A stretch of DNA of 64,000 bases from Thermodesulfobacteriota bacterium. GTDB taxonomy: Bacteria > Desulfobacterota > Anaeroferrophillalia > Anaeroferrophillales > Tharpellaceae. The notes under the pieces are model-generated. The model was given only the letters and a program-made list of their open reading frames with translations, was not told the origin of the DNA and did no database searches. The stretch is taken from positions 8,338-72,337 of the forward strand of contig JANTFH010000002.1 of the NCBI GenBank assembly GCA_024763535.1. Direction: 5' to 3'. The position numbers were made by a program, and so were the translations under genes. Below, piece by piece: positions 3,281-62,539 of the stretch (position 1 is the first letter of the stretch; every line of letters starts with the position of its first letter).

Positions 3281-4150
3281 TTGCTTGATGTACCCCGTTA
3301 TAAGCCAGTTCGCCTGATACCTTTTCTGCTGCTCTCCTGTCTGTTGCACTTTAGTTTCCTGCTGGCGCTGCCGGATCTGAACCGTCTCTTTAATATCCAT
3401 ATAAGACGGCTGATACCGTTGGCACAGGTTGAACTTGAGGTGGATCTGATCAAACCCGATCGTAAGCCGCAGCCCAAACCTAAGCCCAAATCCGGTGTCG
3501 TCGAAAATAACTCCTCCCGTAAGTTTGATCAGCACATAGCCTCCCTGATTGATGCCCGTATGCAGCAACTTCCCGCTCTCGGTGATGCCGAAGAACCGCC
3601 GCCGGCGGCGCTTGAACTGCCGGCGGTAAAGGATCTGCCTGAGAATTCAGCTACGGTTCTGGCGCTGCCGAAAACCGACCCCCTGGCCCGGCCCCGGGAG
3701 TTGCTGGGAAAACTCGGCCGCCAGTCCCAGGGCCGCTTGAGCGGTCGGCGTCTGGGTGGAGTAATCGATAAACCGGAGAGCGATGACCGCCTGACCCGGT
3801 TGTTGGCGGAGGACGTGAAAAAGGCTCTGGATCACTATGCCGTGGCCGAGAAAAAGCCGAAAGAGCGAGACTACAGTTTGAGCGGTCCGGTGGCCGTAAA
3901 CCGTAAGGTTCTGTTTCGCCCGGCTCTGCCCAAGGTTACCCTGGTTCGGGATGTTACTGTCAGTTTTCGTTTCTGGGTGCGGCCCGACGGCAGTGTTAAC
4001 CGGATAGAGACCCGGCGCATCGGTGATCTGGAACTGGTCAATGTGGCGGAAAGATATCTGAAACAGTGGCGTTTTACCCGGCTCTCTCCCGAAGTCAAGC
4101 AGCAGGAGCAGTGGGGGACAGTTAACATTACTTTTCGGGTGCCGCGATGA
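3281..4150 (+). CDS. TonB/TolA-like energy transducer
   Basis: N-terminal TM with SxxxH (SCLLH), Pro/Lys-rich linker (KPQPKPKPK), C-terminal TonB_C-like segment (FWVRPDGSV...LKQWRF); follows exbB/exbD homologues. Confidence 0.75.
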   Translation: MLDVPRYKPVRLIPFLLLSCLLHFSFLLALPDLNRLFNIHIRRLIPLAQVELEVDLIKPDRKPQPKPKPKSGVVENNSSRKFDQHIASLIDARMQQLPALGDAEEPPPAALELPAVKDLPENSATVLALPKTDPLARPRELLGKLGRQSQGRLSGRRLGGVIDKPESDDRLTRLLAEDVKKALDHYAVAEKKPKERDYSLSGPVAVNRKVLFRPALPKVTLVRDVTVSFRFWVRPDGSVNRIETRRIGDLELVNVAERYLKQWRFTRLSPEVKQQEQWGTVNITFRVPR

Positions 4151-4554: not shown

Positions 4555-6231
4555 ATGAAAAAACGAGTTACAGGATACGTAGAAACCGCAGTAAAAGCTG
4601 TGGCTGCCGCCCGGGGTCTGGCTGAGGCTGAACTGCCTGAGATTGTGGTTGAGCTGCCCCGGGAGAAAAGCTTTGGTGATTTTTCGACCAATATCGCGAT
4701 GCAGCTGGCTAGGCCCTGGCGCGATAATCCGCGTCGGATCGGCGAAGCTATAAAAGCCGAGCTCGAAAATGAGAATGCCTTATCGGAAGTAACGATTGCC
4801 GGACCCGGTTTTATTAATATGACTCTGGATCTCTCGCTCTGGCATCAGCGCTTAAAAGAGATCTATCGGCAGCGGGATAAGTTCGCTCATCTCGACTACG
4901 GCGCCGGTAGGCGGGTGCTGATCGAATTTGTCAGTGCCAACCCTACCGGTCCTCTGCATATCGGTCATGGTCGCGGAGCGGCAGTCGGTGATGTCTTGGC
5001 CAGGCTCCTGAAACGTACCGGTTTTGCGGTTGATCGTGAGTACTACGTTAACGATGCCGGTAACCAGATGCAGGTTTTAGGTCGTTCCCTGCGCTGGCGC
5101 TACCTGGAACTTTCAGGTAAGCGCTCCGGTGAGATTCCGGAAGGCTATTACCGGGGAGAGTATCTACTTGATCTGGCCCGGGAACTGATGGCCGAGTCGG
5201 GGCGGGAGCTGGTATCTCTCGAGGTTGAGGAAGAGGATGATACGGCCCTTGAGTTTTTTACCGCTTATGCCGCCGACTCAATTCTGGATGGTATCCGCCG
5301 TGATCTTGAGCTTTTCGGGGTCGGTTTTGAGCATTGGACCAGTGAAAAAGAGTTTTTTACCTCGGGCAAGGTTGATGCCGCTCTGGCTGACTTGAAAGCC
5401 AAAGAAGTTCTTTACGAGGATGAGGGCGCGCTCTGGTTTGCCTCCTCACGTTTTGGTGATGAGAAGGATCGGGTGGTGGTTCGGGCCAACGGTGTAAAAA
5501 CCTATTTTGCTTCCGATATCGCCTATCACCGGGAAAAATTTGCCCGGGGTTATGATCTTCTAGTCGATATCTGGGGTGCGGATCATCACGGTTATGTCCC
5601 GCGGCTTACGGCCGCGATTGAGGCTCTGGGCGGTAAGCCGGACAGCTTTGCCGCTATTCTGGTGCAGTTGGTCAGTCTCTCCCGGGGCGGAACGCCGGTG
5701 GCGATGTCGACTCGTTCGGGTGAATTTATTACCCTGAAGGAGGTGGTCGAAGAGGTCGGCAGAGATGCGGCCCGCTACTTTTTTCTGACCCGGGATTCGA
5801 ACAGTCATCTTGAATTCGATCTTGAGCTTGCTAAAGCCAAAAATAATGATAATCCGGTCTACTACGCTCAGTATGCGCATGCCCGGATCTGCAGTATCAT
5901 GCGAAAAATTGAGGCCGAGGGCCTCTGTGATAAAGCGGTTGAAACTTTTTCCGGGGCTTCACTGACTTTGCCGGAAGAGCTTGAACTGATCAAAAAACTG
6001 GACAGTCTGCCGAATGTTCTGGAGCGGGCGGCCCGAACCCTGGAACCTCACCGTCTGACCTACTATCTGGACGATCTGGCGGCCCAACTGCACTCCTACT
6101 ACAATCGCAATCGTGTGATCAGCGATCAGCAGGAGGTTTCCGGTGACCGTCTGCTTTTATTCGAAACCATTCGTCAGGTATTGGCGATCTGTTTGAACCT
6201 GCTTGGAGTTTCAGCTCCGGAGCAGATGTAG
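4555..6231 (+). CDS. argS: Arginine--tRNA ligase
   Basis: EFVSANPTGPLHIGHGRGA (HIGH), WGADHHGY, MSTRSGEF, YAQYAHARI; ATG 4555 preferred over the track start at 4522. Confidence 0.98.
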   Translation: MKKRVTGYVETAVKAVAAARGLAEAELPEIVVELPREKSFGDFSTNIAMQLARPWRDNPRRIGEAIKAELENENALSEVTIAGPGFINMTLDLSLWHQRLKEIYRQRDKFAHLDYGAGRRVLIEFVSANPTGPLHIGHGRGAAVGDVLARLLKRTGFAVDREYYVNDAGNQMQVLGRSLRWRYLELSGKRSGEIPEGYYRGEYLLDLARELMAESGRELVSLEVEEEDDTALEFFTAYAADSILDGIRRDLELFGVGFEHWTSEKEFFTSGKVDAALADLKAKEVLYEDEGALWFASSRFGDEKDRVVVRANGVKTYFASDIAYHREKFARGYDLLVDIWGADHHGYVPRLTAAIEALGGKPDSFAAILVQLVSLSRGGTPVAMSTRSGEFITLKEVVEEVGRDAARYFFLTRDSNSHLEFDLELAKAKNNDNPVYYAQYAHARICSIMRKIEAEGLCDKAVETFSGASLTLPEELELIKKLDSLPNVLERAARTLEPHRLTYYLDDLAAQLHSYYNRNRVISDQQEVSGDRLLLFETIRQVLAICLNLLGVSAPEQM

Positions 6232-6322
6232 GGTCTCTGCCGGAATGCAGGCGTAGGGGGTCGGTGTGGAAACTTTTTTATGCCGACAGGTTTATGGATA
6301 TAAAATAGACAAATAACGGTTT

Positions 6323-7033
6323 GTGGGGATTATGTTTGAGCAATTAAAAGCAGCCTTGGTTACATTTCTGGTTATTTTCGTTTTCTTTGTCGGCGGTATT
6401 CTGGTCGGCCTGAAACTGCCGGAGACGGAAATTTATCAGGAGTGGGCCGGTATCCAGCAGCCGGCCCCGGAAAAACTGCGGCCCACCAAGGTGGCGGTAA
6501 TTCAGATTCCGGGATCTCGGCAAGCTTCCGCAGCTACTCCTGAAACCCCCGTCGCGGCGTATCAGGAAGCCTGCCCCGGCGGGGTTTGCAAAATACCGGA
6601 AGCGGGACAGAAGCCGCATCAGCAGGCACCTGTAAAGCCGCAGGAGAAAATTGATCTGACCTTTTACGACGAGCTTGCCGATAAACCGACCGAGAGCGGC
6701 GGGTCGGCTCTGATCGTCAAGCAGACGCCGATAGTGAAAAAAAAGAAATCCGGTTCCATGGCAACAGCCAAAGTTAGGCGTCCGGTTTCCGACTCACAAC
6801 GCTGGGAGATCAGGGTCTGCTCTCTGCCGCAGGAGATCAAAGCCCGTTTGGAGCGGAGCCGGTTGATTAAGGATTTCCCGGGTGTTAAGATTGAACCGGT
6901 GCAGGTGGCCGGTAAGGGCACCTGGTACCGAATCAAGATCAGCGATATCAAGGATCGGGATACAGCGGAACGTTATCAGCAGGAACTGAGTCGTAAATAT
7001 CACTATAAGCCTCTGCTGCGGCAGCAGAAATAA
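6323..7033 (+). CDS. SPOR-domain membrane-anchored protein (FtsN-like)
   Basis: N-terminal TM, low-complexity linker, LTFYDEL motif, C-terminal SPOR-like domain (KGTWYRIKI); directly after argS. Confidence 0.75.
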   Translation: MGIMFEQLKAALVTFLVIFVFFVGGILVGLKLPETEIYQEWAGIQQPAPEKLRPTKVAVIQIPGSRQASAATPETPVAAYQEACPGGVCKIPEAGQKPHQQAPVKPQEKIDLTFYDELADKPTESGGSALIVKQTPIVKKKKSGSMATAKVRRPVSDSQRWEIRVCSLPQEIKARLERSRLIKDFPGVKIEPVQVAGKGTWYRIKISDIKDRDTAERYQQELSRKYHYKPLLRQQK

Positions 7034-7182: not shown

Positions 7183-8988
7183 ATGGCTTTTCCGCAGAAA
7201 AATATTCGTAATTTCTCGATTATCGCGCATATCGATCATGGTAAGTCAACTCTGGCCGACCGCCTGCTGGAGATGACCGGGGCGGTTACTTCACGGCAGA
7301 TGAAGGATCAGCTCCTGGATAACATGGATCTTGAGCGCGAACGGGGCATTACGATCAAAGCCCAGTCGGTCTGTCTTGACTATGAGGCTGATGACGGTGA
7401 ACTCTATCAGCTCAATCTGATTGATACCCCCGGTCATGTCGATTTCTCCTATGAGGTGTCGCGTTCGCTGGCGGCAACCGAGGGGGCTATTCTCGTGGTT
7501 GATGCCGCTCAGGGAGTTGAGGCCCAGACCCTGGCTAATGTTTACCATGCTCTGGACGCCGATCTTGAGATTGTGCCGGTCTTGAACAAGATCGATCTGC
7601 CGGTGGCGGAACCGGAACGGATTAAACGTCAGATTGAGGACGTTATCGGTCTGGATGCCGAAAACGCCATCCTTATCAGTGCTAAAACCGGAGTTGGTAT
7701 TGATGAATTTCTGCGGGCCGTGGTGGAACGGGTTCCGGCTCCACGAGGTGATCTTGACGCACCTTTGAAAGCGATGATTTTCGACTCCTGGTTCGATCCC
7801 TATCAGGGGGTCATAGCCCTGGCTCGGATTTTTGACGGGATAGTCAAACCGGGTATGAAAATCAAGATGATGTCAACCAATTCCGAATTTGATGTCCTGC
7901 GGGTGGGGAAGATGTCTCCAGCCATGGTTGACAGTAAAACTCTAGAGGCCGGAGAGGTCGGTTTTGTCATTGCCGGGATCAAGGCGGTCGTCGACTGTAA
8001 GGTTGGTGATACGATTACCGGCGTCCGGGATTCAACCGCAACTCCATTTCCCGGTTTTCAGGAAGTGCAGCCGATGGTTTTCAGCGGGCTCTATCCGACC
8101 GACTCTATTCAGTATGAGCCGCTTCGGGACGCGCTCGATAAGCTCAGGCTCAATGATGCCTCCTTTACCTTTCAGCCGGAGACTTCGGTAGCTTTGGGTT
8201 TTGGTTTTCGCTGCGGTTTTTTAGGCCTGCTCCATATGGAGATTATTCAGGAGCGTCTGGAAAGGGAGTATCAGCTGGATCTGATTACAACCTCGCCGAC
8301 GGTTGTCTATGAGGTTGAGTTAAAAGACGGTTCGGTGGTGGCCATCGATAATCCGAGCAGCCTGCCCCTGGCCGGGGAGATCAGCCATATCGGGGAACCG
8401 ATGGTGCGGGCTTCGATTCATGTTCCGAATGAGTATATCGGCAATATCCTGAAACTGTGTGAAGACAAACGCGGTACCCAGCAGGAGATCAAGTATCTGG
8501 ACGAGACCCGGGCCATGGTGGTCTATGACCTGCCCTTAAATGAGATCGTTCTGGATTTTTATGACCGTCTGAAATCTTTAACCCGGGGATATGCTTCTCT
8601 CGATTATGAGCCTTGTGGTCATCGTCACGCCAACCTGGTAAAACTGGATATTTTGATCAACGGTGAACTAGTTGATGCTCTGTCAATGATAGTGCATCAG
8701 GACCGGGCTTTTGATCGCGGCCGGGATCTGGCGGTAAAGATGAAGGAGTTGATTCCCCGGCAGATGTTCGAGGTCGCGATTCAGGCAGCCATCGGTACTA
8801 AAGTGGTGGCGCGAACGACGGTAAAAGCTTTGCGTAAGAATGTTACCGCCAAATGTTACGGTGGAGATATTACCCGTAAACGTAAACTGTTGGAGAAACA
8901 GAAAGCCGGGAAGAAACGCATGAAGCAGGTCGGTAAGGTCGAACTGCCGCAGGACGCTTTTCTGGCGATTTTAAATATTGATTCATAG
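7183..8988 (+). CDS. lepA: Elongation factor 4 (LepA)
   Basis: [30 protein letters not shown]-terminal [18 protein letters not shown]. Confidence 0.99.
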
Positions 8989-18471: not shown

Positions 18472-19218
18472 TTGAATTTATCCCCCCGCAATTTAAAATT
18501 GACCATCGCCTACGACGGTAGCGACTATCATGGCTGGCAGGTTCAGCCTAACGGGATAACCGTACAGGCCCGGATTGAGGATGCCTTCTGCAAGTTCTCC
18601 GGGGCCACTGTCTCCCTCCAGGGTTCGGGCCGTACTGATGCCGGAGTTCATGCCTGGGGTCAGGTAGCTTCACTGGCCTATAACGGCAGTCTGCCGGTTG
18701 AGCGGATTCAGGCGGCCTTAAACAGCCTGCTGCCGGAGGATATCTCGGTACGTCGGGTTGAGGACACTGCGCCTGGTTTTCACGCCCGCAAATCGGCTCG
18801 GGCCAAAACCTACCTCTATATTATTGATAACGGTCGGGTGGCTAATCCCTTTTTGCGGCGCTATGCCTGGCATATCCGGCAGCCGCTCAATCTTTCGGCG
18901 ATGATCCGGGCGGCCGAATTTTTGCCCGGCTGTCAGGATTTTATCTCCTTCAAGGCCGCAGACGGTGAAACCCGAACCAGCCGGCGCACGATTATTCAGG
19001 TTCGCTGGCGGCAGCGCGGATCCAGTCTCTGCTTTTTTATTAAGGGGGATGGCTTCTTGAAGAATATGGTGCGGATTATTGTCGGTACTCTGGTAGATTG
19101 CGGCCGGGGCCGCAACTCGCCTTCAGTAATGGCCGAGATCATCGCCGGCCGCGACCGGGCCGCGGCCGGTATTACCGCGCCGGCTCGAGGGCTTATTTTA
19201 CGGTCGGTGGATTATTAG
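18472..19218 (+). CDS. truA: tRNA pseudouridine(38-40) synthase
   Basis: YDGSDYHGWQ, GRTDAGVHA, FLKNMVRIIVG. Confidence 0.98.
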   Translation: MNLSPRNLKLTIAYDGSDYHGWQVQPNGITVQARIEDAFCKFSGATVSLQGSGRTDAGVHAWGQVASLAYNGSLPVERIQAALNSLLPEDISVRRVEDTAPGFHARKSARAKTYLYIIDNGRVANPFLRRYAWHIRQPLNLSAMIRAAEFLPGCQDFISFKAADGETRTSRRTIIQVRWRQRGSSLCFFIKGDGFLKNMVRIIVGTLVDCGRGRNSPSVMAEIIAGRDRAAAGITAPARGLILRSVDY

Positions 19219-19249
19219 TATTGTGAGGTTATTCTGAAGTTAACTAACA

Positions 19250-19408
19250 TTGATGGCGTCGTAAAAAGTCTCCATCTGCTGCGTTGCTCAAAAAACTTCG
19301 TCACTGCGGTGTACTCTATGTACGCCTCATTCCTCAGTTTTTTGGCGCCTTGCATATGAAGCTTTTTACTTAGCCATCGGGTATTTGGACTTTTTACGAG
19401 TTTGTCAA
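19250..19408. repeat. 159-bp nested inverted-repeat (MITE/REP-like) element between convergent truA and rex
   Basis: Left TTGATGGCGTCGTAAAAAGTC versus right GACTTTTTACGAGTTTGTCAA (12-bp exact core); internal IRs GATGGC/GCCATC, GTAAAAAG/CTTTTTAC, CAAAAAAC/GTTTTTTG, GGTGTAC/GTACGCC. Confidence 0.75.
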
Positions 19409-19418
19409 CACTGTCCCA

Positions 19419-20060
19419 TCAATGTTTTTTGTGGGTCAAAAGATAGGCCAGATTATCCAACTCGCTGGTAATCGATACATTGCGCAGAGTAATTGATTCC
19501 GGGACTTTGACCTTGATCGGGGCGAAGTTTAAGATCCCCTTGATGCCGCCGGCTACGAGTCGGCCGGCAATCTCCTGGGCCGCCGCCGCCGGGGTGGTAA
19601 TGATGCCGATACTGATCTTCTCTTTTCGGACGTAATCTTCGATATTTTCAATCGCCTGAATGGTTACGCCGGCGGTGACCTCCGTGCCGATCTTGTTCGG
19701 GTCGGAGTCAAAGGCGGTGATGATGCGAAAACCGTGATTGCGGAAAAAATCAAAATTGAGCAGAGCCTGTCCCAGTTTCCCGACGCCGACGACGGTCGTC
19801 GGCCAGTTGTGGTTGATGCCGAGAATGTCTTTAATCTCGGCTTCCAGTTTCTTCGTGTCATAGCCGACCCCACGGACGCCGAATTCACCGAAATAGGAGA
19901 GGTCTTTACGGATCTGAGCCGGGCTTACCTGGCACGATTCTCCCAGCATTTCGGAAGAGATCACCGGGTTGCTTTCAGTTCCTAGTCTGCCTAGATAGTT
20001 GACGTAAGTGGAGAGACGTTTGATCGTAGCTTCTGGAATTTTATGCTCTTTAGTTTTCAT
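19419..20060 (-). CDS. rex: Redox-sensing transcriptional repressor Rex
   Basis: IPEATIKRL, IRKDLSYFGEFGVRGVGY, VGVGKLGQAL, GILNFAP; ATG at 20060. Confidence 0.97.
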   Translation of the reverse strand: MKTKEHKIPEATIKRLSTYVNYLGRLGTESNPVISSEMLGESCQVSPAQIRKDLSYFGEFGVRGVGYDTKKLEAEIKDILGINHNWPTTVVGVGKLGQALLNFDFFRNHGFRIITAFDSDPNKIGTEVTAGVTIQAIENIEDYVRKEKISIGIITTPAAAAQEIAGRLVAGGIKGILNFAPIKVKVPESITLRNVSITSELDNLAYLLTHKKH

Positions 20061-20202
20061 TTTCAGCCTGTTGCGTGAAATAGATTGATACTTAGCAGAG
20101 TCTTTGTTCCGTAGTTCTCTTGTGATTATCACATCGTTGTCTGTGGTTCAAGTGAAATTTATCCTTTTTGTCGCTAATAGTTCGAAAAAATCGAGATACT
20201 TT

Positions 20203-40813: not shown

Positions 40814-41881
40814 TCAGACCATCTGCCCCAGCATCTGTTTTAATTCCATCAGATCGTTGCTCTTCGAGAAAGCATCATCCAAAGTGATCTTACCGCTCTG
40901 ATAGAGCGTAGCTAAAGACTGGTTCATGGTCTGCATTGAAAATCGGCTCTGGCCGACCTGCATCTGGGAATAGATCTGATGTACCTTGTCTTCCCGGATC
41001 AGGTTACGGATGGCCGCATTGGGCACCATCAGTTCTAATGCAAGAACCCGGCCATTGCCGCTGCGATGGGGTAAAAGCTGTTGGGAGATAACCGCCTGGA
41101 GAACGAAAGAGAGCTGCGAGCGGATTTGCGGCTGTTGGTGTGAGGGAAAGATGTCGATGATCCGGTTGATGGTCTGGGCGCAGGAGTTGGTGTGCAGAGT
41201 CGCCAGGGTCAAGTGCCCGGTTTCGGCTACAGTCAGGCTTGAGGCTACGGTTTCAAGGTCACGCAGTTCGCCGACCAGAACCACATCCGGATCCTGGCGC
41301 AGAATATAGCGCAGTGCTTTGCTGAAATTTTCAGTGTCAGCCTTGACTTCGCGCTGGTTGACGATACAGTTTTTATGGGTATGAATAAACTCAATCGGGT
41401 CTTCGATGGTGATGATATGTTCGTGGCGCTCCTCGTTGACCTGATTGATCATTGATGCCAAAGTCGTGCTTTTACCACTGCCGGTGGGGCCGGTGACCAG
41501 GATCAGACCGCTGGGTTTGCGGAGCAATTCATGAATGACCGGCGGCAGGCCAAGTTCCTCGTAGGGCCTTATTTCGTAAGGGATGGCCCGGAAAGCTCCG
41601 GCGGCCGTGCCGCGCTGGACAAAGATGTTGGCCCGGAAGCGGCTGACCCCTTTGAGTCCGAAGGAGAGATCGAGCTCATTCTCTTTCTCGAAGCGGTGTT
41701 TCTGGCTGTCGGTTAAGACACTGTAGCACATCTGGGTCGTCTCATTCGCAGTCAAAGGCGGAAGATCCAGGGCCTCAAGGACACCGTCGACCCGAATCTG
41801 CGGAGGGCTGGCAACCGTCAAGTGAAGGTCCGAGGCACCTCTGTCGATCATAATTTTCAGAAGCTCATGTAAGCTGGCCAT
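40814..41881 (-). CDS. pilT: Type IV pilus retraction ATPase
   Basis: GPTGSGKSTT, TIEDPIE, LRQDPD, AIRNLIRE motif. Confidence 0.97.
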   Translation of the reverse strand: MASLHELLKIMIDRGASDLHLTVASPPQIRVDGVLEALDLPPLTANETTQMCYSVLTDSQKHRFEKENELDLSFGLKGVSRFRANIFVQRGTAAGAFRAIPYEIRPYEELGLPPVIHELLRKPSGLILVTGPTGSGKSTTLASMINQVNEERHEHIITIEDPIEFIHTHKNCIVNQREVKADTENFSKALRYILRQDPDVVLVGELRDLETVASSLTVAETGHLTLATLHTNSCAQTINRIIDIFPSHQQPQIRSQLSFVLQAVISQQLLPHRSGNGRVLALELMVPNAAIRNLIREDKVHQIYSQMQVGQSRFSMQTMNQSLATLYQSGKITLDDAFSKSNDLMELKQMLGQMV

Positions 41882-41941: not shown

Positions 41942-43651
41942 TTAATCTCGGGCGGTTACCCGCAGGACCTCCTGGAAACTTGTAGTTCCTTCGAGCATTT
42001 TGCTGAGACCGCTCTGTCGCAGGCTCTTCATGCCGTTTTTGATCGCTATATTCTTTAATTCTATCGTGTTGGCTCCATCGAGGATGGCACTCTTTACCTC
42101 ATCAGCAAAAGTCATGACCTCATAGAGGGCGATTCTGCCCCGGTAGCCGGTACGGTTGCATTCGTCACAGCCTTCACCTTTCATGCAGGCCGCAGTTTCG
42201 GCTGTCTGCGGATCCATGCCGCTTTGAATCAAGGTGGCCGCTGGAATATTGTCCCGGGTGATGCATTTGGGGCAGATTCTGCGGGCCAGCCGCTGGGCGA
42301 TTATAACATTGACGGATGAGACGATCAGGAATGGTTCGATACCCATGTTTACCAGCCGGGTAATACTGCTCGGAGCATCGTTGGTATGCAGGGTTGAGAG
42401 TACCAGGTGGCCGGTCAATGATGCTTTGATGCTGATCTCCGCCGTCTCCAGGTCACGCATCTCACCTACCAGGATAATATCCGGATCCTGCCGCAGGAAG
42501 GAGCGCAGAGCTGAAGCGAAGGTCAGACCGATATTTTCCCGGACCTGAACCTGATTCACGCCTTCCAGATTAAATTCAACCGGATCTTCAGCCGTCATGA
42601 TGTTGTCCGAGACCTTGTTGAGTTCGCTTAAGGCGGAGTACAGGGTTGTGGTTTTCCCGCTTCCGGTCGGGCCGGTGACCAGGATCAGGCCGTAGGGCTG
42701 CCGGATTGCGTCATCCACCGCCTCCAGGGCTTGCGGTTCAAGACCGAGTCTGGTCATGTCAAGTTGAAGGTTGGATTGGTCAAGCAGGCGCATTACTATT
42801 TTTTCGCCGAAGAGGGTCGGTAGTACCGAGACCCGCATATCCATAGATTTGCCCTTGCCGAGTTTCATTTTTATACGACCGTCCTGAGGCAGGCGGCGTT
42901 CGGCAATATCTAGTTCCGACATGATTTTAATGCGTGAAGTAATAGCATTTTTCAGGCGCATCGGCGGTTTCATAATCTCGTAGAGAACTCCGTCAATCCG
43001 GTAGCGAACCCGAAAAAATTTTTCGAATGGTTCGACATGAATATCGCTGGCTCCGCGCCTGATTGAATCGATAATGATTTTGTTGACCAGGCGAATTACC
43101 GGGGCATCCTCTACTCCCTTTTGCAGGTCTGCGGTATCGCTGTCATTTTCCTCCTGCACGACCTCCAGTTCGGAGTCGTCGAATTCGGATATTATGTCAT
43201 CCAGCATCGAGGAAGAATCGTAGTAGCGGTCAATCGCTTTCTTGATTGCGGCTTCGGAAGCGATTGTAGTTTCAATGTCGTAGCCGGTAATAAATTTTAT
43301 GTCATCCAGAGCTGAGAGGTCGGTGGGGTCGCTAGTCGCAATAATCAGGGTTGAACCGATGCGGTTGGTCGGTAGAACATGGTGTTTGTTGGCCAACTCA
43401 CTGGAGATCAATTCTATGACTTGATCGGAGATAGTTATCTCATTCAGGTTTACGGCTGGAACCCCGAATTGAAGACTTAGGAAATTAGTCAGCTGCTCAT
43501 CTTTTATATAGCCTAAGCGAACCAGAGTTGATCCTAGCCGGGCGGGGTTGATCTTTTGCTCAGCCAAAGCATGGTTTAACTGGTCGGGAGTGATTAAGTT
43601 GGCATTGAGCAGCAGATCACCGATGCGCTTATTGGTTTTAGGGGGGGGCAT
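41942..43651 (-). CDS. pilB: Type IV pilus assembly ATPase with N-terminal MshEN motifs
   Basis: ASDIHVEP, RLPQDGR, GPTGSGKTTT, LRQDPDIILVGE, tetra-Cys Zn motif; ATG 43651 preferred over TTG 43672. Confidence 0.97.
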   Translation of the reverse strand: MPPPKTNKRIGDLLLNANLITPDQLNHALAEQKINPARLGSTLVRLGYIKDEQLTNFLSLQFGVPAVNLNEITISDQVIELISSELANKHHVLPTNRIGSTLIIATSDPTDLSALDDIKFITGYDIETTIASEAAIKKAIDRYYDSSSMLDDIISEFDDSELEVVQEENDSDTADLQKGVEDAPVIRLVNKIIIDSIRRGASDIHVEPFEKFFRVRYRIDGVLYEIMKPPMRLKNAITSRIKIMSELDIAERRLPQDGRIKMKLGKGKSMDMRVSVLPTLFGEKIVMRLLDQSNLQLDMTRLGLEPQALEAVDDAIRQPYGLILVTGPTGSGKTTTLYSALSELNKVSDNIMTAEDPVEFNLEGVNQVQVRENIGLTFASALRSFLRQDPDIILVGEMRDLETAEISIKASLTGHLVLSTLHTNDAPSSITRLVNMGIEPFLIVSSVNVIIAQRLARRICPKCITRDNIPAATLIQSGMDPQTAETAACMKGEGCDECNRTGYRGRIALYEVMTFADEVKSAILDGANTIELKNIAIKNGMKSLRQSGLSKMLEGTTSFQEVLRVTARD

Positions 43652-54086: not shown

Positions 54087-55916
54087 TTATGGTGGACTTT
54101 GATTGAATTTTTCCAGTTGTTCGCGGTAGTATTCACGCCGGTCCGGGTCAGACAGGTTTTTGAGAATATCTTCTTCAATAGCAATGGCCTGTTTTTGTTC
54201 CTGATGCCGCCAGCAGGCTTCGGCCAGGGTGTCGAGGATATAGGGCTCGGGTTTTAAGTCAGCGGCTTTTCGGGCCAGGGTCAGAGCCCGGCCGTAATCA
54301 CGCAGTTTCAGATCTTTTGCTGTGAGTAGGAGCCAGGCCAGACTGTTGAGGACTTCCGGGTCTTCAGGATTACGCTGCCGAGCTTGATGCAGGGCTTTAA
54401 TAGCCTTGTCTTCCTGATTATTCTCGATATAGAGAGAAGCCAGTAAAAACCAGAGTTCAGGCCGATCCGGCTCTTTCCGCAGTTGATGTTCAATCTTGAT
54501 ACCCAGATAACGATAATGCAGCTTGGTGATCATGTTGTTCTGCTGCCAGTAGATTCCGGGTAGAGAAATCAGACTGAAAATGGCAATATAGAGCAGCAGA
54601 CATTTTTTCAGAAAGCGGTGGTGCCTGGTTGCGACTGCCTGGTTTGTCAGGGCCGTTTGCAGAAAAGTTATCCGCTGCGGAATGTTAAAGTGATGCCAGT
54701 TGGGTTTTCGCCCCGCCGCCCCCAGAAGCAGACCCAGCTTATTAAAGGCCGAAACCAGTTCATAGCCGAAACCCGGCGGGTCGAGGCTGGCCAGATCCGC
54801 CTGACGTTCAAAGTTGCGCAGAAAAAATCCGAAGACATAACGGAAAAAGAGGAAATAGATGATTAAGAGTGGAAAAATCTCGAGGCATGAGAGCAGTGTG
54901 TTTTCAGCCATTAAACCATTTTCGAGCAGATAGACGATCGGTGCGGTTGTCAGTGCCCAGGCCAGCATCAGATCATAATAGAGGAAATTGCAGACAAAAA
55001 AACTTAAGAAAAAGAAGAGAAAAATAAGCAGATGGTGATAGCGGACATGGCCCAGTTCATGGCTGGTGACAGCCAGAATCTCATCATCATTGAGCAGGTG
55101 AATCAGATCCGGGGTTAAAAGCAGATAGCGGCTGCAGGCAAAAGCTCCAACTACCGCTGCGGTTGCCATTCTTCCCTCGAAGGCGGGCCATATAAGAATC
55201 CGGCGATAGCCGATCTTCTGGCTGTGACAGAGTGCCGCAAGCTTTAGCCGCAGGTCTGAGTCAGGTAGACTGGAACAGCCCCAGAAACGTACCAGCAAGG
55301 GCGGTGCCACGGTTGTGAAAAGCAGCAGGAAGGCGATAAAGAGTGCAACTTCACCCAGCGGCTGCTGCAGTATCTCCGCCAGCGGCTGCGGTATCATAAA
55401 GTTAAGAAGATCAACGGCAAAAAGCAGAGTCAGCCAGGGAACCATAAGCCCCAAGGCAAACCGCAGCCGGGCCTTGATGTAGGCGGAGGCTGGGTGGAGC
55501 AGGATTATATCTTGAGAAAAACGGCGATGGCTCTCCCGCCAGATAATCGTCTGCAGCAGGAAAAACATGGACAGTCCGATAAGATTGTTGACTCCCTCGC
55601 TGGCGGCGGCCGGCGGCAGCGAGTCGATCAGTGATCCCAGGCCGGTACCGTAAATCATGCCGGAGAAGACGATTACCGCCCCTGCCTGTAATTCCAGCTG
55701 CAGGCGATCATAGAGGGCGGGCAGCTGCCTGCGATCCGGGTCGGTGGCTTTCCGGTAGACCATCCGGCAGCGGTAGCTGACGATCACGTAAAAAAGGGCA
55801 AACAGGCCGGTTGTCAGTAACAGGCTGGTCGCGGTCGTCATCCCTTCAGGCGGGCTATCTGGGTGAGTGGAGTAGATCAGGATGACAATGATATAAAAAA
55901 TAAGTGACTGATACAT
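54087..55916 (-). CDS. M48-family membrane zinc metalloprotease with C-terminal TPRs
   Basis: Multiple TMs, SHELGH (HExxH), FERQAD, HFNIPQRI, TPR tail (LNSLAWLL, PYILDTLA). Confidence 0.9.
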   Translation of the reverse strand: MYQSLIFYIIVILIYSTHPDSPPEGMTTATSLLLTTGLFALFYVIVSYRCRMVYRKATDPDRRQLPALYDRLQLELQAGAVIVFSGMIYGTGLGSLIDSLPPAAASEGVNNLIGLSMFFLLQTIIWRESHRRFSQDIILLHPASAYIKARLRFALGLMVPWLTLLFAVDLLNFMIPQPLAEILQQPLGEVALFIAFLLLFTTVAPPLLVRFWGCSSLPDSDLRLKLAALCHSQKIGYRRILIWPAFEGRMATAAVVGAFACSRYLLLTPDLIHLLNDDEILAVTSHELGHVRYHHLLIFLFFFLSFFVCNFLYYDLMLAWALTTAPIVYLLENGLMAENTLLSCLEIFPLLIIYFLFFRYVFGFFLRNFERQADLASLDPPGFGYELVSAFNKLGLLLGAAGRKPNWHHFNIPQRITFLQTALTNQAVATRHHRFLKKCLLLYIAIFSLISLPGIYWQQNNMITKLHYRYLGIKIEHQLRKEPDRPELWFLLASLYIENNQEDKAIKALHQARQRNPEDPEVLNSLAWLLLTAKDLKLRDYGRALTLARKAADLKPEPYILDTLAEACWRHQEQKQAIAIEEDILKNLSDPDRREYYREQLEKFNQSPP

Positions 55917-56143
55917 AAAAATAGGATATCCGGGTAATTTGAGTTTTTTATCGGCTGAAAGCCGGTTCTGAAATCCATCGGGTTTGTAGCATGGATTCGC
56001 TTCTATGGGAACCGGTGATTATTTTAGGAGTCATCCTCCTGAAAATCAAGCTGAGCACGACTTCATTGTTTGACTTAGCCCGGCATATCCGATAATAATG
56101 CTGTCAATATCCTTTTGTAACTCCTCAGCCTGATAGTAAGTCC

Positions 56144-56322
56144 GGGGTCGGTGGCGGCTTTTCTCCGCTAGGCGTTAAGATTTCTGTTTTTCCTTGCACT
56201 CGCTTTGCCCGCATTGCAAAACTCGCTTCGCTCAAACAGTTGCAACGCCTATGGGCTCTCGCTCATTGGGAAAAACAACGAAATCATTTCCGCAACCGCT
56301 TAAGAAAAACCGCCACCGCCCC
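56144..56322. repeat. ~180-bp nested stem-loop element, copy A
   Basis: Outer IR GGGGTCGGTGGCGGCTTTTCT/AGAAAAACCGCCACCGCCCC; GATTTCTGTTTTTCC/GGAAAAACAACGAAATC; TTGCAA/TTGCAA closing AACTCGCTTCGCTCAAACAG. Confidence 0.75.
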
Positions 56323-56434
56323 CTTAAGCAAGACGGGAGATATTATTTGGCTTAAGTAGTTACAATATTTTTAAGTTCTCATATGATGATTGATCGATAA
56401 AATTGTCCACCGGTAGATGAAAAGGGGTTGTTAA

Positions 56435-58159
56435 GTGAAAGAGCAGAGTTGTGAAACAAAATCAGCAGAAGAACGGGTTAACTTTATTCAGCAGCAGATT
56501 GTCGATGATCTGCAGGCCGGGAAAAACGGCGGTCTGGTTCATACCCGGTTTCCGCCTGAACCCAATGGCTATCTGCATATCGGGCATGCCAAATCGATCT
56601 GTCTCAATTTCGGTCTGGCAAAAACCTTTGCCGGAGTCTGCAACCTGCGCTTTGATGATACCAATCCCAGCAAAGAAGATGTTGAGTATGTGGATTCCAT
56701 CAAAGAGGATGTCAAATGGCTCGGTTTTGACTGGGGTGAAAATGAGTTTTTCGCGTCCAACTATTTTGCCGAACTTCACGATTACGCGGTTCAGCTGATC
56801 AAGATGGGCCGGGCCTACGTTTGTGATCTGACCCCGGCTGAAATGCGGGAGTATCGCGGCACCCTTAAGGAACCCGGTCGAAACAGCCCCTTTCGGGAGC
56901 GTTCGGTAGCTGAGAATCTTGACCTGTTTGCCCGGATGCGAGCCGGGGAATTTGCTGACGGTACCCGGGTTCTGCGCGCTAAAATTGATATGGCTTCCGG
57001 TAATATGAATATGCGTGATCCGGTAATCTACCGGATCGCCAAGGTTCCGCATCATCGTACCGGTACGCAGTGGTGTATCTATCCTATGTACGATTTTGCC
57101 CACGGTCTTTCCGATGCGATTGAGGGGATTACCCACTCAATATGTACCCTTGAGTTTGAGGATCACCGGCCACTGTACGACTGGTTTATCGAGCAGTTGC
57201 AGACCCCGGCCCGGCCCCGGCAGATTGAGTTTGCCCGGCTGAACCTGAGTTACACGGTGATGAGTAAGCGAAAATTGATGCAGCTGGTTGATGAAAATCT
57301 GGTTTCCGGCTGGGATGACCCGCGTCTGCCGACCCTCTCCGGTTTAAGACGTCGGGGTTACACGCCGGCCTCAATCCGGAATTTTTGCGAACGGATCGGG
57401 CTGGCTAAACGTAACAGTATGGTCGATGTTGCTCTTTTAGAACATGCCGTGCGTGAGGGTCTCAATAAAGAAGCGGCCCGCTATATGGCCGTGCTGCGGC
57501 CGTTGAAGGTGATTATTGAGAATTATCCGGAGGCTCAGGTGGAAGAGCTGGATGCGGTTAATAATCCCGAAGATGAGAGTATGGGGCGGCGTAAGGTTCC
57601 TTTTGCCCGGGAACTTTATGTGGAGCAGGACGATTTTATGGAGGATGCCCCGAAAAAATTCTATCGTCTGACCCCGGGTCGGGAGGTACGGCTGCGTTAC
57701 GCCTATTATATCCGCTGCGAGCGGGTCGAAAAAGATGAGAACGGTGCGGTGACGACTCTCTACTGTACCTATGATCCGGCCACCAGGGGCGGTTCATCTC
57801 CGGATGGCCGCAAGGTTAAGTCGACCTTGCACTGGGTGGCCGCAAAAACCGCAGTTTCGGCCGAAGTCAGGCTTTATGACCGGCTCTTTTTAGATCCCGA
57901 CCCCGCGGCGGAAAAAGACGGTGCTTCTTTTACGACAAAAATCAACCCCGATTCCCTTGAAGTCTTAAACGACTGTAAACTGGAACCGGCTCTGGCGGAA
58001 ATCAGCGCGGAGACGGCGGTACAATTTGAACGACTGGGTTATTTTATCGTCGATAACAAGGAGAGTACGCCCGCAAAACCGGTTTTCAACCGGACCGTTA
58101 CATTACGGGATAACTGGGCCAAAAAGGCGGGGAACAAGCGCTTGGGAAAGCGGCGCTGA
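56435..58159 (+). CDS. glnS: Glutamine--tRNA ligase
   Basis: [50 protein letters not shown]. Confidence 0.98.
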
Positions 58160-58200
58160 TAACCCGGTTTGTAGAGGCTTAAGAGATAGTCTTAGCTTTT

Positions 58201-60519
58201 TTATTCGCTTGCGGCTTCAAGTTCGGGCTGGTTCTGCTTCATTATGATATTCACTTTTCCACCCTGTTTTAAGTCTCCGAAGAGGAGCATGTCAGCCAGC
58301 GGGTCTTTGATTTTATCCTGAATCAGGCGATCCAGCGGCCGGGCCCCGAATTTAGGGTCAAAACCTTTTTCCGCAAGCCAGGTACGCACCTCGGGGCTGA
58401 TCGTTAGTTGAACCTTGCGGGGTCTGAGAAAATCGTCAAACCGATCCATAAATTTATCGACTACCTTAAGCATTATATCTCGGTTTAAGGGATGGAAAAA
58501 TATGATCTCATCCAGGCGGTTGCGGAATTCCGGGGTGAAGAGTTTTTCCAGAGCCTTTCTCCCTTTATCTTTAGTGGTGCCGGCTTGTGTCTCGCCGAAG
58601 CCGACCGTATTGGCCGCCATCTCCCGGGCCCCGGCGTTGCTGGTCATAATCAGGATAGTGTGGCGGAAATCGGTTTTCCGGCCATTGTTGTCGGTCAGTG
58701 TGGCATAATCCATTATCTGCAGCAGGATGCTGAAAATATCGGGATGGGCCTTATCGATTTCATCCAGCAGAACCAAGGCGTGCGGGGTTTTGCGAATCTG
58801 TTCGGTCAAGAGTCCGCCCTGTTCAAAGCCGACATAACCGGGCGGAGCCCCGATGAGCCGGGCGACCGCGTGTTTCTCCATATATTCACTCATGTCGAAG
58901 CGGACCAGTTCAATCCCGAGCCGGTGGGCCGCCTGGCGGCAGATTTCGGTTTTGCCGACCCCGGTCGGGCCGGTAAAGAGGAAAGAGCCTAAAGGGCGTT
59001 CCGGCTGATTGAGCCCGGCATGGGCTCTTTTTAAGGCCCGGAAGAGGGCGGCAATCGCTTCATCCTGGCCGAAGATCTGTTTCTTTAGGTAGTCATCCAG
59101 CCGGGCCAGGCGGTTGGAGTTATCCGTGGTTACCTTTTTAACCGGGACCCTGGCAATCTGGGAAACCACTTTTTCGATTTCCGGTACGGTAATGGTGCGA
59201 ATTTCATTGTTGCCGCTGGCCAGCCGGGCCGCCGCCGCCGCCTCATCGATAACATCAATCGCTTTATCCGGAAGAAAACGGTCATTGATATAGCGGGCTG
59301 AGAGTTCAGCCGCGGCTTTTATCGCCGCCCGGCTGTAGCGTACCCGATGGTGACGGGCGAAATCCGGAATCAGTCCCTTTAAGATGGCTACGGTTTCAGT
59401 GATGCTGGGTTCATCCAGGGTAACCGGCTGAAAGCGCCGGGCCAGAGCCCGATCTTTAGCAAAGTTCTGCTTGTACTCTTCGTGTGTGGTGGAGCCGATG
59501 CAGCGGATATGACCGGCGGCTAAGACCGGTTTTAAGATGTTGGCCGCATCCATGGAGCCGCCGCTGGTGGCTCCGGCCCCGACCAGGGTGTGAATTTCAT
59601 CAATAAAAATAATGACTTTTGGTTTTTTTTCTAGCTCATCGATCACCCCTTTGAGGCGTTCTTCAAACTGGCCGCGATATTTGGTTCCGGCCAGAACCGC
59701 CCCCAGATCAAGGGCAAAAATCTCATAATCAAGCAGGTTGTCCGGCACCAGAGCCTTCTCGATATGCAGGGCCAGACCCTCGGCCATCGCCGTTTTACCG
59801 ACCCCGGAGTTGCCGATAAAGAGGGGGTTGTTCTTCTGCCGGCGGCAGAGTACCTGCAGGGTTCTCCGCATCTCCTTCTCCCGGCCGATAAGCGGGTCGA
59901 TATTGCCGGCCCGGGCTTTAGCTCTTAAATCGACGGTAAACTTATTCAGCAGCGGCAGCTTCCGGCCGGGTTGTTCTTTCTGGTTGGTTGCAGTCGTCGG
60001 GCGGCCGGCCTGAGGGTCTCCCGGCGTCGTCGTAAAACTTGAGTCATCAGCGGGATAGGGCCGCGGTTTAAGCTTATCCGGGTGCGCGGCACTCATATCT
60101 TCGCTGGAGATAAGGCGCAGGATATCGAGTCGGTTTATATCCTGCTCCTTGAGAAAGAAACAGGCGTAGCTCTCCTCTTCGGCAAAGATCGCCGCCAGTA
60201 GATCGCCGATCTCGGCTTCCGGTTTCTCCGACATCTGTACCTGAATCAGGGTGCGTTGTATAAGCCGCTGGAAAGCTATGGTCTCGGTCGGGGCAGTGTT
60301 GCTGTCGTTCCTGAGTTTCGGTACCTTGGCGGAGAAGTAGTTTTCCAGCCGGGCGATTAGAGTTGCGACATTGCCGCCGCATCTCTCGATCAGATCCCGT
60401 CCGGTTTCATCCTGAAGGATGCTAAAGAGCAGATGCTCGACGGTCAGGTATTCATGCTCGCGGTTTTTGGCCTCCCGAAAAGCTGAAATAATAGCCTGTT
60501 CAAATTGTTGATTCATCAT
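58201..60519 (-). CDS. clpA: ATP-dependent Clp protease ATP-binding subunit ClpA
   Basis: [46 protein letters not shown]; adjacent to clpS. Confidence 0.97.
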
Positions 60520-60521
60520 AA

Positions 60522-60836
60522 TTATACTTTTTCCATTGTGCAGCGCAGGGGAAATCCGGCTTCGGTGGCCCGCCGCTCGACTTCAGCTACCTTGCTCTCG
60601 GCAATCTGGTGTTCGTATTCACCGCAGCAGCCGATGCCGGTGCGGTGCACCATCATCATTATCTGTTCGGCCTGTGCCGCCTGATAATGGAAAACTTCCT
60701 GAAGAATTTCGACGACAAATTCCATGGTAGTATAGTGGTCGTTATGGATGAGAACCCGGTAGAGCGGCGGTTCCGGCAGCTCAGTCAGCTGCTCATCTAA
60801 AATCTCACTGCTTTGATCAGGTGCGAATTCCGTCAT
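60522..60836 (-). CDS. clpS: Clp protease adaptor ClpS
   Basis: YRVLIHNDHYTTMEFVV, MVHRTG, FPLRCTME. Confidence 0.97.
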   Translation of the reverse strand: MTEFAPDQSSEILDEQLTELPEPPLYRVLIHNDHYTTMEFVVEILQEVFHYQAAQAEQIMMMVHRTGIGCCGEYEHQIAESKVAEVERRATEAGFPLRCTMEKV

Positions 60837-61010
60837 GAATTTTTCTCACTGTTTAATCCGATTCTATTTCAGGGCGTTTCTATAAAATCACCATCAGTGA
60901 AATCTAAGCTTGCTTTTTATGGCGAGTTGCCCTTAAAATGCAAGAGAAAAATTTTGTTTTCTCTATTTAGCAAAATAATAGACAGGTGTCCGGCCTGGGT
61001 ATTATAACTC

Positions 61011-61190
61011 GGGATAACGGGTAATTTTCTTCCACTTCTTACGCTCAATTTCTGTTTTTCCAGCGCTCATTGCGCTGGAATTGCTAAACTCGTTCGTATC
61101 TTACTCAAAGAGTCGCAATTCCGGCCGCTTTATGCGCTGGGGAAAACCTCGAAATTTCGCGAGACACTACGGGAAACAACCCTGAATCCC
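61011..61190. repeat. ~180-bp nested stem-loop element, copy B
   Basis: Outer IR GGGATAACGGGTAATTTTC/GAAACAACCCTGAATCCC; AATTTCTGTTTTTCCAGCGC/GCGCTGGGGAAAACCTCGAAATT; GGAATTGC/GCAATTCC closing TAAACTCGTTCG...CTCAAAGAGTC. Confidence 0.7.
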
Positions 61191-61249
61191 TGGAGTTTAG
61201 AGTCTGCAATCATCTAACTGGGCAACCCTGAAAATAATCGGGAATTTTT

Positions 61250-62539
61250 ATGCTTCGTCGCCGGCGAAATATTTTTTTACTCTCTCTTCTGTTACTTACA
61301 ATTCTGTTTTCGGCTTTCTTCTACTATTTCAAGTCCCAGGTTGCGGTTATTCCCAGATTAAATCTGGTGTCGGTTTCTGATGCTGAATGGCCGCTTATCG
61401 AGGATGATCTGGAGTTGGATTCCCTGCGGCAGGCTCTGACCTATAATCTCGATTATCTTAAAAGATTGCCCGGATCGCGAATTATGAATTACGGCCGGCA
61501 GACGGTTGTTGTTGAGCGCATCCGTAAAGCTCAGGAGGCGTTGCTGGAGTTCCTTGGCAAGAATCCGGAAAGCTCTGCACTCAATCAGTATCTACGGGAT
61601 AATTTTCAACTTTTGGAGTCGCTGGCGGCGGCGGAAAATCAGGCCCAGAAAGAGCCGGTGCTGTTTACCGGTTATTATGTGCCGATGCTTAAGGGTTCTT
61701 TGACGGCGGATGAAAAATATCGCTATCCGCTTTACCGGAAACCGGATGATCTGGTTACCGTTGATCTACCCAGGTTTAAGCTTGAACGCCGGGTGCTGAG
61801 ATTGTGGCCGTGGCTTGATAGAGTGCCTTTCGGGCCGCGTTTTGCGGATCTGCACTTTCCGGTGATGCGCGGGCGGTTGTCGGAGTCCGGCCGGGTGGTT
61901 CCCTACTATACCCGGGAGGAGATTGATTATAAAGGGAAGCTTAAGGGAAAAAGACTGGAACTTCTCTGGGTTGATGATGAGATCGACCGTTTTTTTCTGC
62001 AGATTCAGGGATCCGGCTTGGTAGAGCTGAAAAGTGGGGCTTGGGTTATGGTTGGATACAGTGCCGCCAACGGTCAGCCCTATCGCAGTATCGGGGGCTG
62101 GCTCATACGTCAGGGACTGATGGCCCGGGAGCAGGTGTCAATGCCGTCGATCAGAGCCTGGCTGCAGGCTCATCCCGAACGTCTTAAAGAGGTTTTTACG
62201 GTCAATTCGAGTTATGTTTTTTTTCGTAAACTGGCGAGTCCTGAAGCGCTGGGCTGTTATCAGACGCCGATTACCGGAGGCCGCTCCATCGCCACCGATC
62301 GTAAGGTTTTCCCCGGCGGGGCTCTGGCCCTGATTGCCACGGAGAAACCGGTTTTTTCACAAACCGGAGACCTTCTTGAATGGCGCAGGTTTCAACGTCT
62401 GGTCTTAACCCAGGATACCGGCGGAGCCATTAAAGGCCCGTACCGGGTCGATATCTACTGTGGTGATGATGGGGCCGCCGCCCGGATGGCCGGAGTTATG
62501 AAACAGTCCGGGCGTCTTTTTCTGTTATTGCCGAAATGA
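61250..62539 (+). CDS. mltA: Membrane-bound lytic murein transglycosylase A
   Basis: FTGYYVP, YYTREEI, FFLQIQGSG, NSSYVFF, SIATD, QDTGGAIKG...D (3D domain). Confidence 0.95.
   Translation: MLRRRRNIFLLSLLLLTILFSAFFYYFKSQVAVIPRLNLVSVSDAEWPLIEDDLELDSLRQALTYNLDYLKRLPGSRIMNYGRQTVVVERIRKAQEALLEFLGKNPESSALNQYLRDNFQLLESLAAAENQAQKEPVLFTGYYVPMLKGSLTADEKYRYPLYRKPDDLVTVDLPRFKLERRVLRLWPWLDRVPFGPRFADLHFPVMRGRLSESGRVVPYYTREEIDYKGKLKGKRLELLWVDDEIDRFFLQIQGSGLVELKSGAWVMVGYSAANGQPYRSIGGWLIRQGLMAREQVSMPSIRAWLQAHPERLKEVFTVNSSYVFFRKLASPEALGCYQTPITGGRSIATDRKVFPGGALALIATEKPVFSQTGDLLEWRRFQRLVLTQDTGGAIKGPYRVDIYCGDDGAAARMAGVMKQSGRLFLLLPK

Follow-up and report, generated by a model that had tools for sequence, protein, structure and literature searches.

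Two long hairpins in a bacterial genome are very probably decayed IS66-family MITEs whose central core recurs between unrelated ends

Introduction

In the Correia or NEMIS elements of Neisseria, insertion duplicates TA, pairing is largely confined to the 26-bp ends, and an IHF site is present. The ERIC and YPAL sequences of enterobacteria and yersiniae are intergenic, imperfect palindromes of 127-170 bp that pair over their whole length. To our knowledge, ERIC has neither a parent insertion sequence (IS) nor a clear 8-bp duplication. In mobile insertion cassettes (MICs), IS ends enclose passenger DNA, and the passengers are usually genes. Ends that start with GTAA, combined with an 8-bp duplication, point to the IS66 family, the transposition of which has been little studied. 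Correia elements are mentioned in PMC4853749, ERIC is listed in PMC10969869, and the IS66-family ends GTAAGCGTCCGG... and GTAACCGTCCGGGCA (GTAAGCG..., GTAACCG...) agree with a GTAA start (PMC12888890).

Here we analysed two hairpin elements, copies A and B, in a 64,000-nucleotide stretch of bacterial DNA (the window, meaning the whole stretch), which occurs in hydrothermal-vent metagenomes. An initial annotation had described both as long nested hairpins and had read them either as a structured non-coding RNA (ncRNA) family or as a mobile element of the REPIN or MITE (miniature inverted-repeat transposable element) kind. Copies A and B are additions to a known class, the IS66-family MITEs, and the central hairpin that they share with other types is their unusual feature.

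Results

Two hairpins in the window are the inner parts of larger elements

Copies A and B both fold as long imperfect hairpins, and the nested stems ascribed to A were present as described. On the + strand of A, defined as the strand where the core reads CTGTTTTTCC...AAACTCG, the outer arms (56144-56164 and 56303-56323) extend over 21 nt and are 90% complementary, the middle stem is formed by ATTTCTGTTTTTCC and GGAAAAACAACGAAAT with a 2-nt bulge, and the inner stem TTGCAA/TTGCAA closes a 20-nt loop, AACTCGCTTCGCTCAAACAG. The minimum free energy of the RNA was −69.2 kcal/mol for A (z −5.97), which was equalled by none of 200 shuffles, and −66.7 kcal/mol for B (z −6.76), with again no shuffle folding equally well. 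The motifs quoted as common to both elements were found exactly at both places, with ATTTCTGTTTTTCC at 56180 and 61048 and ATTGC.AAACTCG at 56213 and 61080; when up to two mismatches were allowed, ATTTCTGTTTTTCC had nine matches in the window compared with 0.8 expected, and the aligned regions of A and B were 75% identical. The statement that each outer stem pairs with itself was solid for A, whose outer stem alone is strongly paired (z −6.4), and weak for B, whose outer stem alone shows modest pairing (z −2.9) that 2 of 500 shuffles equalled. Besides A and B, no further copies were recovered in the window by motif search, a repeat finder, nhmmer with --max, or a covariance model of the core run unfiltered. 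A match at 19667 that resembles a terminal inverted repeat (TIR) falls within a coding ORF and was set aside as chance.

In BLAST comparison with the collected loci, window positions 56104-56372 aligned at 79-85% with many copies, past the limits first drawn for A. The boundaries of copy A, which is row 1 of alignment A2, were set by the conservation drop over 58 copies together with the table of TIRs and target-site duplications (TSDs). The flanks of A agree at just five of eight positions, so this copy is an old, worn insertion. Copy B found its full-length alignment partner in an intact type B copy (L095:1409-1634, ends GTAATTACTCAGC and GGCTGAATAGTTAT); pairing in its terminal part is no longer above chance, its ends are decayed, and its flanks contain no recognisable TSD. 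The annotated hairpins are real, and their limits were too narrow: they are the inner parts of two decayed MITE copies, the full units of which are given in Table 1.

Table 1. Coordinates of the two window copies and their parts, of the genes downstream, and of MITE types C and D in other loci
Feature	Location	Strand	Basis or remarks
MITE type A, complete but decayed copy (copy A), 247 bp	56117..56363	+	BLAST alignment, conservation drop, TIR/TSD table
Left TIR of copy A, GTAACTCCTCAGCC	56117..56130	+	12/14 to family consensus GTAACTATTCAGCC
Right TIR of copy A, GGCTTAAGTAGTTAC	56349..56363	+	Consensus GGCTGAATAGTTAC, one extra base
Left half of decayed 8-bp TSD of copy A, ATCCTTTT	56109..56116	.	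5/8 match to 56364-56371
Right half of decayed TSD of copy A, AATATTTT	56364..56371	.	Read from sequence
Hairpin of the initial annotation, inner arms and core of copy A	56144..56322	+	Fold and arm pairing
Conserved central core of copy A, common to MITE types A, B, C and D	56176..56286	+	Covariance model R1, 108.2 bits; alignment A3
Gln-tRNA synthetase gene (glnS)	56435..58159	+	Pfam tRNA-synt_1c 6.7e-109 and both anticodon-binding domains; 72 bp downstream of A
MITE type B, decayed copy (copy B), ~220 bp	~60999..61218	+	Ends uncertain by a few bases
Second hairpin of the initial annotation (copy B)	61011..61190	+	Fold
Conserved central core of copy B	61044..61157	+	Covariance model R1, 101.6 bits
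mltA-like gene	61250..62539	+	Pfam MltA 2.1e-56 and 3D domain; ~30 bp downstream of B
MITE type C	L115:620-864		Ends CTGGAATTCCGATATAAGG (CTGGAATTCC...), 8-bp duplication TTCCCGTC
MITE type C, second independent insertion	L117	-	Duplication TAACCCA(T)
MITE type D	Together with the second type C insertion: L117 ~6080-6330, ~3640-4060 and ~7420-7840 (-); L116:770-1190		Ends CAGTGGTGTCCGGTTAG (CAGTGGTGTC...), 9-bp duplication

The family is dispersed in vent bacteria with uniform ends and variable 8-bp duplications

By scanning one genome per species with the pattern CTGTTTTTCC-N(12-30)-ATTGCNAAACTC, we obtained core matches in at least 111 genomic stretches. Among the matches listed, 80 loci belonged to the vent MAG 'Proteobacteria bacterium S015_20', nine to S015_14, two to the MAG JANTGZ01 and one to JAOZRP01, and many of the S015_20 and S015_14 loci lay at contig ends; the 19 remaining listed matches were isolated chance hits in which the rest of the element is absent, and were discarded. 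Through a profile search, about 114 real copies were counted in the collected loci, so that the search of related genomes proposed at the outset did find a family, mostly in S015_20 and S015_14. The core pattern gave no match in viral contigs, and the consensus element gave a single 26-nt chance match in plasmids.

The full type A copies (n = 55) measure 236-242 bp, with ends GTAACTATTCAGC... and ...GCTGAATAGTTAC and 14-bp TIRs, GTAACTATTCAGCC and GGCTGAATAGTTAC; across 58 copies, conservation sets in abruptly at GTAACTATTCAGCC and stops at GGCTGAATAGTTAC. Most intact copies are flanked by perfect 8-bp direct repeats whose sequence differs from copy to copy (e.g. ACAAAAGT, GATAAATT, CTCCTGTG, AACCCAAC and TTGCCAAC), and a single imperfect hairpin extends over the element from end to end. 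Over types A and B the length ranges from 226 to 247 bp (226-242 bp in intact copies), and the sole ORF seen in the element, of 36 codons, is not conserved between types in alignment A3. The elements thus combine TIRs with a duplication of fixed length and variable sequence, and are small, non-coding and dispersed, as MITEs are. The MITE-like proposal of the initial annotation is borne out by these TIRs and 8-bp duplications, by more than 100 intergenic copies, and by the IS66-family IS with the same ends described below.

A small additional stem-loop, CTCC-TGAAAGA-GGGGAG, is confined to the right arm of type A (columns 225-243 of alignment A2; window 56323-56341). In some copies it has matched variants, which read CTCCG...CGGAG (S015_14) or CTCTC...GAGAG (L019), and it is the most variable segment of the type A element (pi 0.18).

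None of 54 copies lay inside an ORF of at least 100 aa; all were intergenic, and many were 0-30 bp from gene ends. The orientation relative to co-directional flanking genes was 8 versus 15-16, which is not significant (~0.2, two-sided binomial, our own calculation), and the same survey counted nine divergent and eight convergent contexts, the copies adjoining unrelated genes in all four arrangements. In the best vent metagenome, the summed contig depth was 570-630 over the element compared with 17.6 in its flanks, and contigs break or end inside it. Across 55400-57100, contigs of three vent metagenomes displayed a repeat-type pile-up with contig breaks and no precise-excision joint; neither these contigs nor the S015_20 locus next to an orthologue of the window (L109), where synteny is limited to the MITE, yielded a pair of empty and filled orthologous sites.

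Types A and B coexist in the MAG JANTGZ01 (L012 and L095). This MAG is labelled Thermodesulfobacteriota, a phylum label different from that of the Proteobacteria MAGs carrying the family, which could reflect either horizontal spread or a binning or labelling problem. Two copies, L021:2622-2859 in S015_20 and L075:3395-3692 in S015_14, lie directly beside an orthologous gene that is 81% identical between the two MAGs, which suggests that this insertion is older than the split of the two species.

Pfam assignments of the flanking genes confirmed the divergent intergenic setting upstream of + strand glnS and mltA, with copy A between a TPR protein gene (−) and that of Gln-tRNA synthetase (+), and copy B between ClpS-ClpA (−) and MltA (+). 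At both ends of copy A, the last five element bases and the first flank base form GTTACA, an outward −35-like hexamer (56116-56121, −; 56359-56364, +). A consensus scan of the flanks located −10-like hexamers 17-18 nt outward of it, TATGAT at 56382-56387 facing glnS and TATTAT at 56097-56092 facing the minus-strand gene, and these promoter-like sites match the consensus at only 9 of 12 positions. A terminator scan found no terminator-like site in A and two weak sites around B. For the core, a sigma-54 promoter, an intrinsic terminator, a conserved small ORF and an IHF site were all dropped after comparison by eye with the consensus, no motif fitting all four types.

Two other repeats were observed in the window. 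An unrelated hairpin repeat at 19246-19424, folding as one long hairpin (ACATTGATGG...CCATCAATGT), sits between two convergent genes, one for a pseudouridine synthase (18472-19218, +) and the other Rex-like (19419-20132, −). This repeat has copies in S015_20 (L043:5216-5374, 90%; L030:4740-4855, 91%), in S015_14 (L075) and on the contig of types C and D (L117:11362-11468, 78%), and is probably another MITE family common to these bacteria. The stretches 41250-41523 and 42444-42705, 1182-1194 bp apart and 77-86% identical, look like tandem paralogous genes, with a nucleotide-binding motif that also appears at 58948-58982 in clpA.

Types A and B share their ends with a single-ORF IS66-family insertion sequence

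Viral contigs scanned with the 14-mer end gave mostly chance singles, and three pairs with perfect 8-bp duplications. A 1613-bp element at L168:369-1981 has the same ends as the MITE and an 8-bp duplication, ATTAAATG. Its single ORF of 490 aa matched Pfam DDE_Tnp_IS66 (PF03050, 4e-60) and zf-IS66, and scored 347.8 bits against the NCBIfam model transpos_IS66 ('IS66 family transposase'), the cutoff of which is 180; over its full length, the IS shares 86-87% identity with copies on Geobacillus plasmids that bear the annotation 'IS66-like element ISGst1 family transposase' (NC_010420.1). The copy on pGS18 has the ends GTAACTATTCACCC and GTAACTATTCAGCC and the duplication GTTCTTTT. We take ISGst1 to belong to the ISBst12 group in ISfinder terms.

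Since both the ends and the duplication length match those of the L168 and pGS18 IS, types A and B carry the ends of a single-ORF IS66-family IS. With the L168 IS the MITE shares just the 14-nt ends, so that simple deletion of this IS does not account for it. The IS comes from Geobacillus-type sequence, of a phylum different from that of the MITE hosts. Searching by tblastn with the IS66-family transposase found no match either in the window itself or in the ~0.75 Mb of host-MAG loci (L001-L117), and a search for an autonomous partner found no long repeats among 111 host loci. MAG assemblies usually lose IS copies. As the transposase was not found in the host loci, we infer, rather than see, a partner in the vent bacteria. 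Of the transposases for which the initial annotation had suggested a search, an IS66-family one, in an IS with the same ends, was seen in L168; none, RAYT or IS66-family, was seen in the host loci. Altogether, we are highly confident that A and B are decayed members of two sister subfamilies of an IS66-family (single-ORF, ISGst1-type) MITE.

Two shorter elements with GTAACTATTCAGCC ends were seen in viral contigs, one of 195 bp (L147:803-997, 8-bp duplication AAAAATGA) and one of 204 bp (L126:6156-6359, 8-bp duplication GATTATTT), each with an unrelated, non-core inside. These are further MITEs with the same IS66-type ends, from other environments.

A central core is shared by four MITE types

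A metagenome scan excluding type A identified two additional types, C and D (Table 1). The three type D insertions have the 9-bp duplications AGCGCAAGT, ATAAATAGT and (A/G)TTATTAAT. One 45.6-kb contig, made up of housekeeping genes, carries both C and D, and in a 14-kb contig piece bearing three C/D copies the genes are all housekeeping ones (Lon, NUDIX and 2-oxoacid:ferredoxin oxidoreductase subunits).

All four types are whole-length hairpins of 220-250 bp and have in common a core of ~110 nt, which reads CTGTTTTTCC ... GCTC ... ATTGCnAAACTCG, a small apical hairpin, and CTCAAACAG ... CAAT ... GGAAAAAnnACG. Its stems CTGTTTTTCC/GGAAAAAC and ATTGC/GCAAT surround the unpaired motifs AAACTCG and CTCAAACAG, which, together with GCTC, are conserved on one strand only, and the apical mini-hairpin covaries (GCGC/GCGC versus GCCC/GGGC). 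Because CTCAAACAG is neither part of the search pattern nor complementary to it, the homology of the cores is not a search artefact; a profile of the right half alone relocated the C/D copies weakly (E 0.02-0.95).

Between A and B, the ends are identical at 12-13 of 14 positions and the core at ~85%, and the arms between them diverge. Among copies, the arms had a diversity of 0.08-0.18, compared with ~0.05 for both the ends and the right core stem; the left core stem and part of the apex also vary little, which is partly due to ascertainment, the collection pattern covering those columns. Homology decays outward from the centre, the reverse of the usual MITE pattern of conserved ends around a variable inside, and ends and core are separable, with A ends occurring around other insides and the core between other ends. 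A parent IS for types C and D was identified neither in viral contigs, searched with both ends, nor in plasmids, searched with the C end: the type C end had no match in viral contigs and chance matches only in plasmids, and the type D end had four matches in viral contigs, none of them a paired element. The idea that a small element had inserted into larger MITEs was discarded, the borders of the shared module in C and D being inverted, not direct, repeats.

RNA structure and DNA palindrome compared

Rfam models at gathering scores gave no match in the whole window, and at E values up to 10 returned only noise in 55900-61400, so that no named family emerged from the comparison with Rfam. A look for the sequence among RNA runs returned none that contains it. 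RNAalifold on 52 type A copies assigned a covariation term of +0.06, and double changes were found in only 2 of 58 pairs. One-sided changes led to G-U in ~31 and to A-C in ~35 cells, which is about equal (our own tally), and the arm consensus of every type showed no excess of top-strand wobbles; selection on a one-strand transcript would favour G-U. The absence of covariation among these copies and of a Rfam match, the similar numbers of G-U and A-C changes, and the lack of a strand bias argue against an ncRNA family, the first of the two readings offered initially: the inserted copies decay neutrally.

Comparison between types gave a different picture, with both-sided changes in 7 of 19 core pairs and pairing in 97% of cells versus 42-59% in slid controls (alignment A3, 11 cores), compensatory changes that come from only two or three lineage splits (A, B, C/D). 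Hence the claim that pairing was kept while sequence diverged holds between subfamilies, but in a DNA palindrome this is not itself proof of selection on RNA. Template switching at quasipalindromes, or re-copying of one arm, is an established mutational mechanism that changes both arms together, and the both-sided changes seen here can have come from it without selection on the fold. Symmetric indels on both arms, read from the alignments of A/B versus C/D, would likewise fit a DNA-level process.

Discussion

A and B are ordinary selfish DNA, except that their central hairpin is also found in MITEs with quite different ends. By the mechanism we propose, an IS66-family transposase encoded elsewhere in the host would bind both ends and move the element in trans, and insertion would duplicate 8 bp of the target. 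The long hairpin would arise because the whole element is an imperfect DNA palindrome, not a structured-RNA gene, and inserted copies would subsequently decay neutrally. With less confidence, we read the ~110-nt core, like the ends, as a part that would have to stay intact in lineages that keep spreading, and suggest that the arms between may be kept complementary by DNA-level palindrome processes (template switching or re-copying of one arm) rather than by selection on an RNA fold. The core, whose loop the initial annotation had proposed as a protein-recognition site, could serve as a binding site, as a hairpin nucleating inverted duplication next to an IS end, or in some other role. A high-copy MITE that has exactly the ends of a single-ORF IS66-family element is a natural minimal substrate, and these repeats explain the breakage of vent bacterial assemblies into hundreds of contigs.

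Conservation of the core in types C and D, whose ends are unrelated, and of unpaired motifs on one strand only is not predicted by a pure model of a selfish palindrome. The core might instead be a functional, selected module, either a structure-specific protein-binding site or a cis-acting RNA or ssDNA element, that is repackaged between different IS ends with the MITE shells as vehicles, a possibility to which we give a clear minority of our belief. It accords with the central position of the same core in four types with three unrelated end sequences (A/B, C in two insertions and D in three), with the presence of A-type ends around unrelated insides (L147 and L126), and with the both-sided changes and high pairing between types, the covarying apical mini-hairpin and the one-strand motifs. 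It is weakened by the small number of independent lineages (A, B, C/D), in which the covariation amounts to two or three events, and by the capacity of template switching to change both sides of a DNA palindrome without selection; moreover, G-U and A-C changes show no asymmetry, strand bias relative to genes is not significant, Rfam gave no match, and no naked cores without ends were found. Somewhat less probable still is that the ~110-nt hairpin is a selected portable module, a candidate structure-specific recognition site or palindrome 'nucleator', around which IS66-type and at least two other ends were repeatedly captured or regrew; if so, the hairpin hitch-hikes on several unrelated transposases and is not the by-product of one. 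The same hairpin between three unrelated end pairs, with arms that remain complementary while changing, is a test case for the birth of palindromic MITEs, for which template switching at a hairpin and selection on structure are the alternatives.

A reading of A and B as a structured ncRNA family, or as a cis-regulatory leader acting on glnS and mltA, is already largely refuted, and we regard it as highly improbable. Both copies do precede a + strand gene and have the same orientation, both fold strongly, and compensatory changes exist between subfamilies; but both lie in divergent intergenic regions, where orientation is uninformative, more than 100 copies adjoin unrelated genes in every one of the four arrangements, the family has the ends and target duplications of a transposon, copies decay without compensation, and Rfam has no match. 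For annotation, the hairpins should be masked as an IS66-family MITE, and not as ncRNA genes, riboswitch-like leaders or terminators.

The least credible proposal, with hardly any probability left to it, is that A and B are REPINs or REP-like palindromes moved by a RAYT (HUH/Y1) as single-stranded hairpins, since their long hairpin shape, abundance and intergenic location are indeed REPIN-like, whereas REP and REPIN insertion occurs without target-site duplication and these elements show clean 8-bp ones, their 14-bp TIRs are the same as in a DDE (IS66-family) element, their ~240 bp far exceed REP doublets, and the loci showed no RAYT gene with copies on its flanks. The target duplications and DDE-type TIRs imply a DDE transposase, not a RAYT, the HUH transposase that acts on single-stranded DNA.

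With the IS66-family MITE as our preferred reading, the closest described relative is ISGst1. The TIR GTAACTATTCAGCC agrees at 14 of 14 positions with the right end of the pGS18 copy, and the duplication is also 8 bp. The IS, however, is 1613 bp long with a transposase gene, compared with ~240 bp and no such gene in the MITE; only the 14-nt ends are common, the subterminal sequence being different; the host is Geobacillus rather than the Proteobacteria of the vent MAGs; and the inside of the MITE is a full-length palindrome, which the IS lacks. Correia/NEMIS elements resemble the family as short, non-autonomous elements with TIRs and hundreds of intergenic copies, whose transcripts can fold as hairpins and whose ends can supply promoter hexamers, but the elements described here have an 8-bp duplication, IS66-type ends and a palindrome that spans the whole length around a conserved asymmetric core. 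ERIC and YPAL share the whole-length imperfect palindrome, the intergenic location and a MITE-like distribution, yet have no sequence similarity to this family, for which an IS with the same ends and an 8-bp duplication were found. As in MICs, the same ends surround different passengers (L147 and L126 versus type A) and the same passenger, the core, lies between different ends (A/B, C and D); unlike in MICs, a hairpin of ~110-165 nt without coding function serves as the passenger and is placed exactly at the centre of the palindrome.
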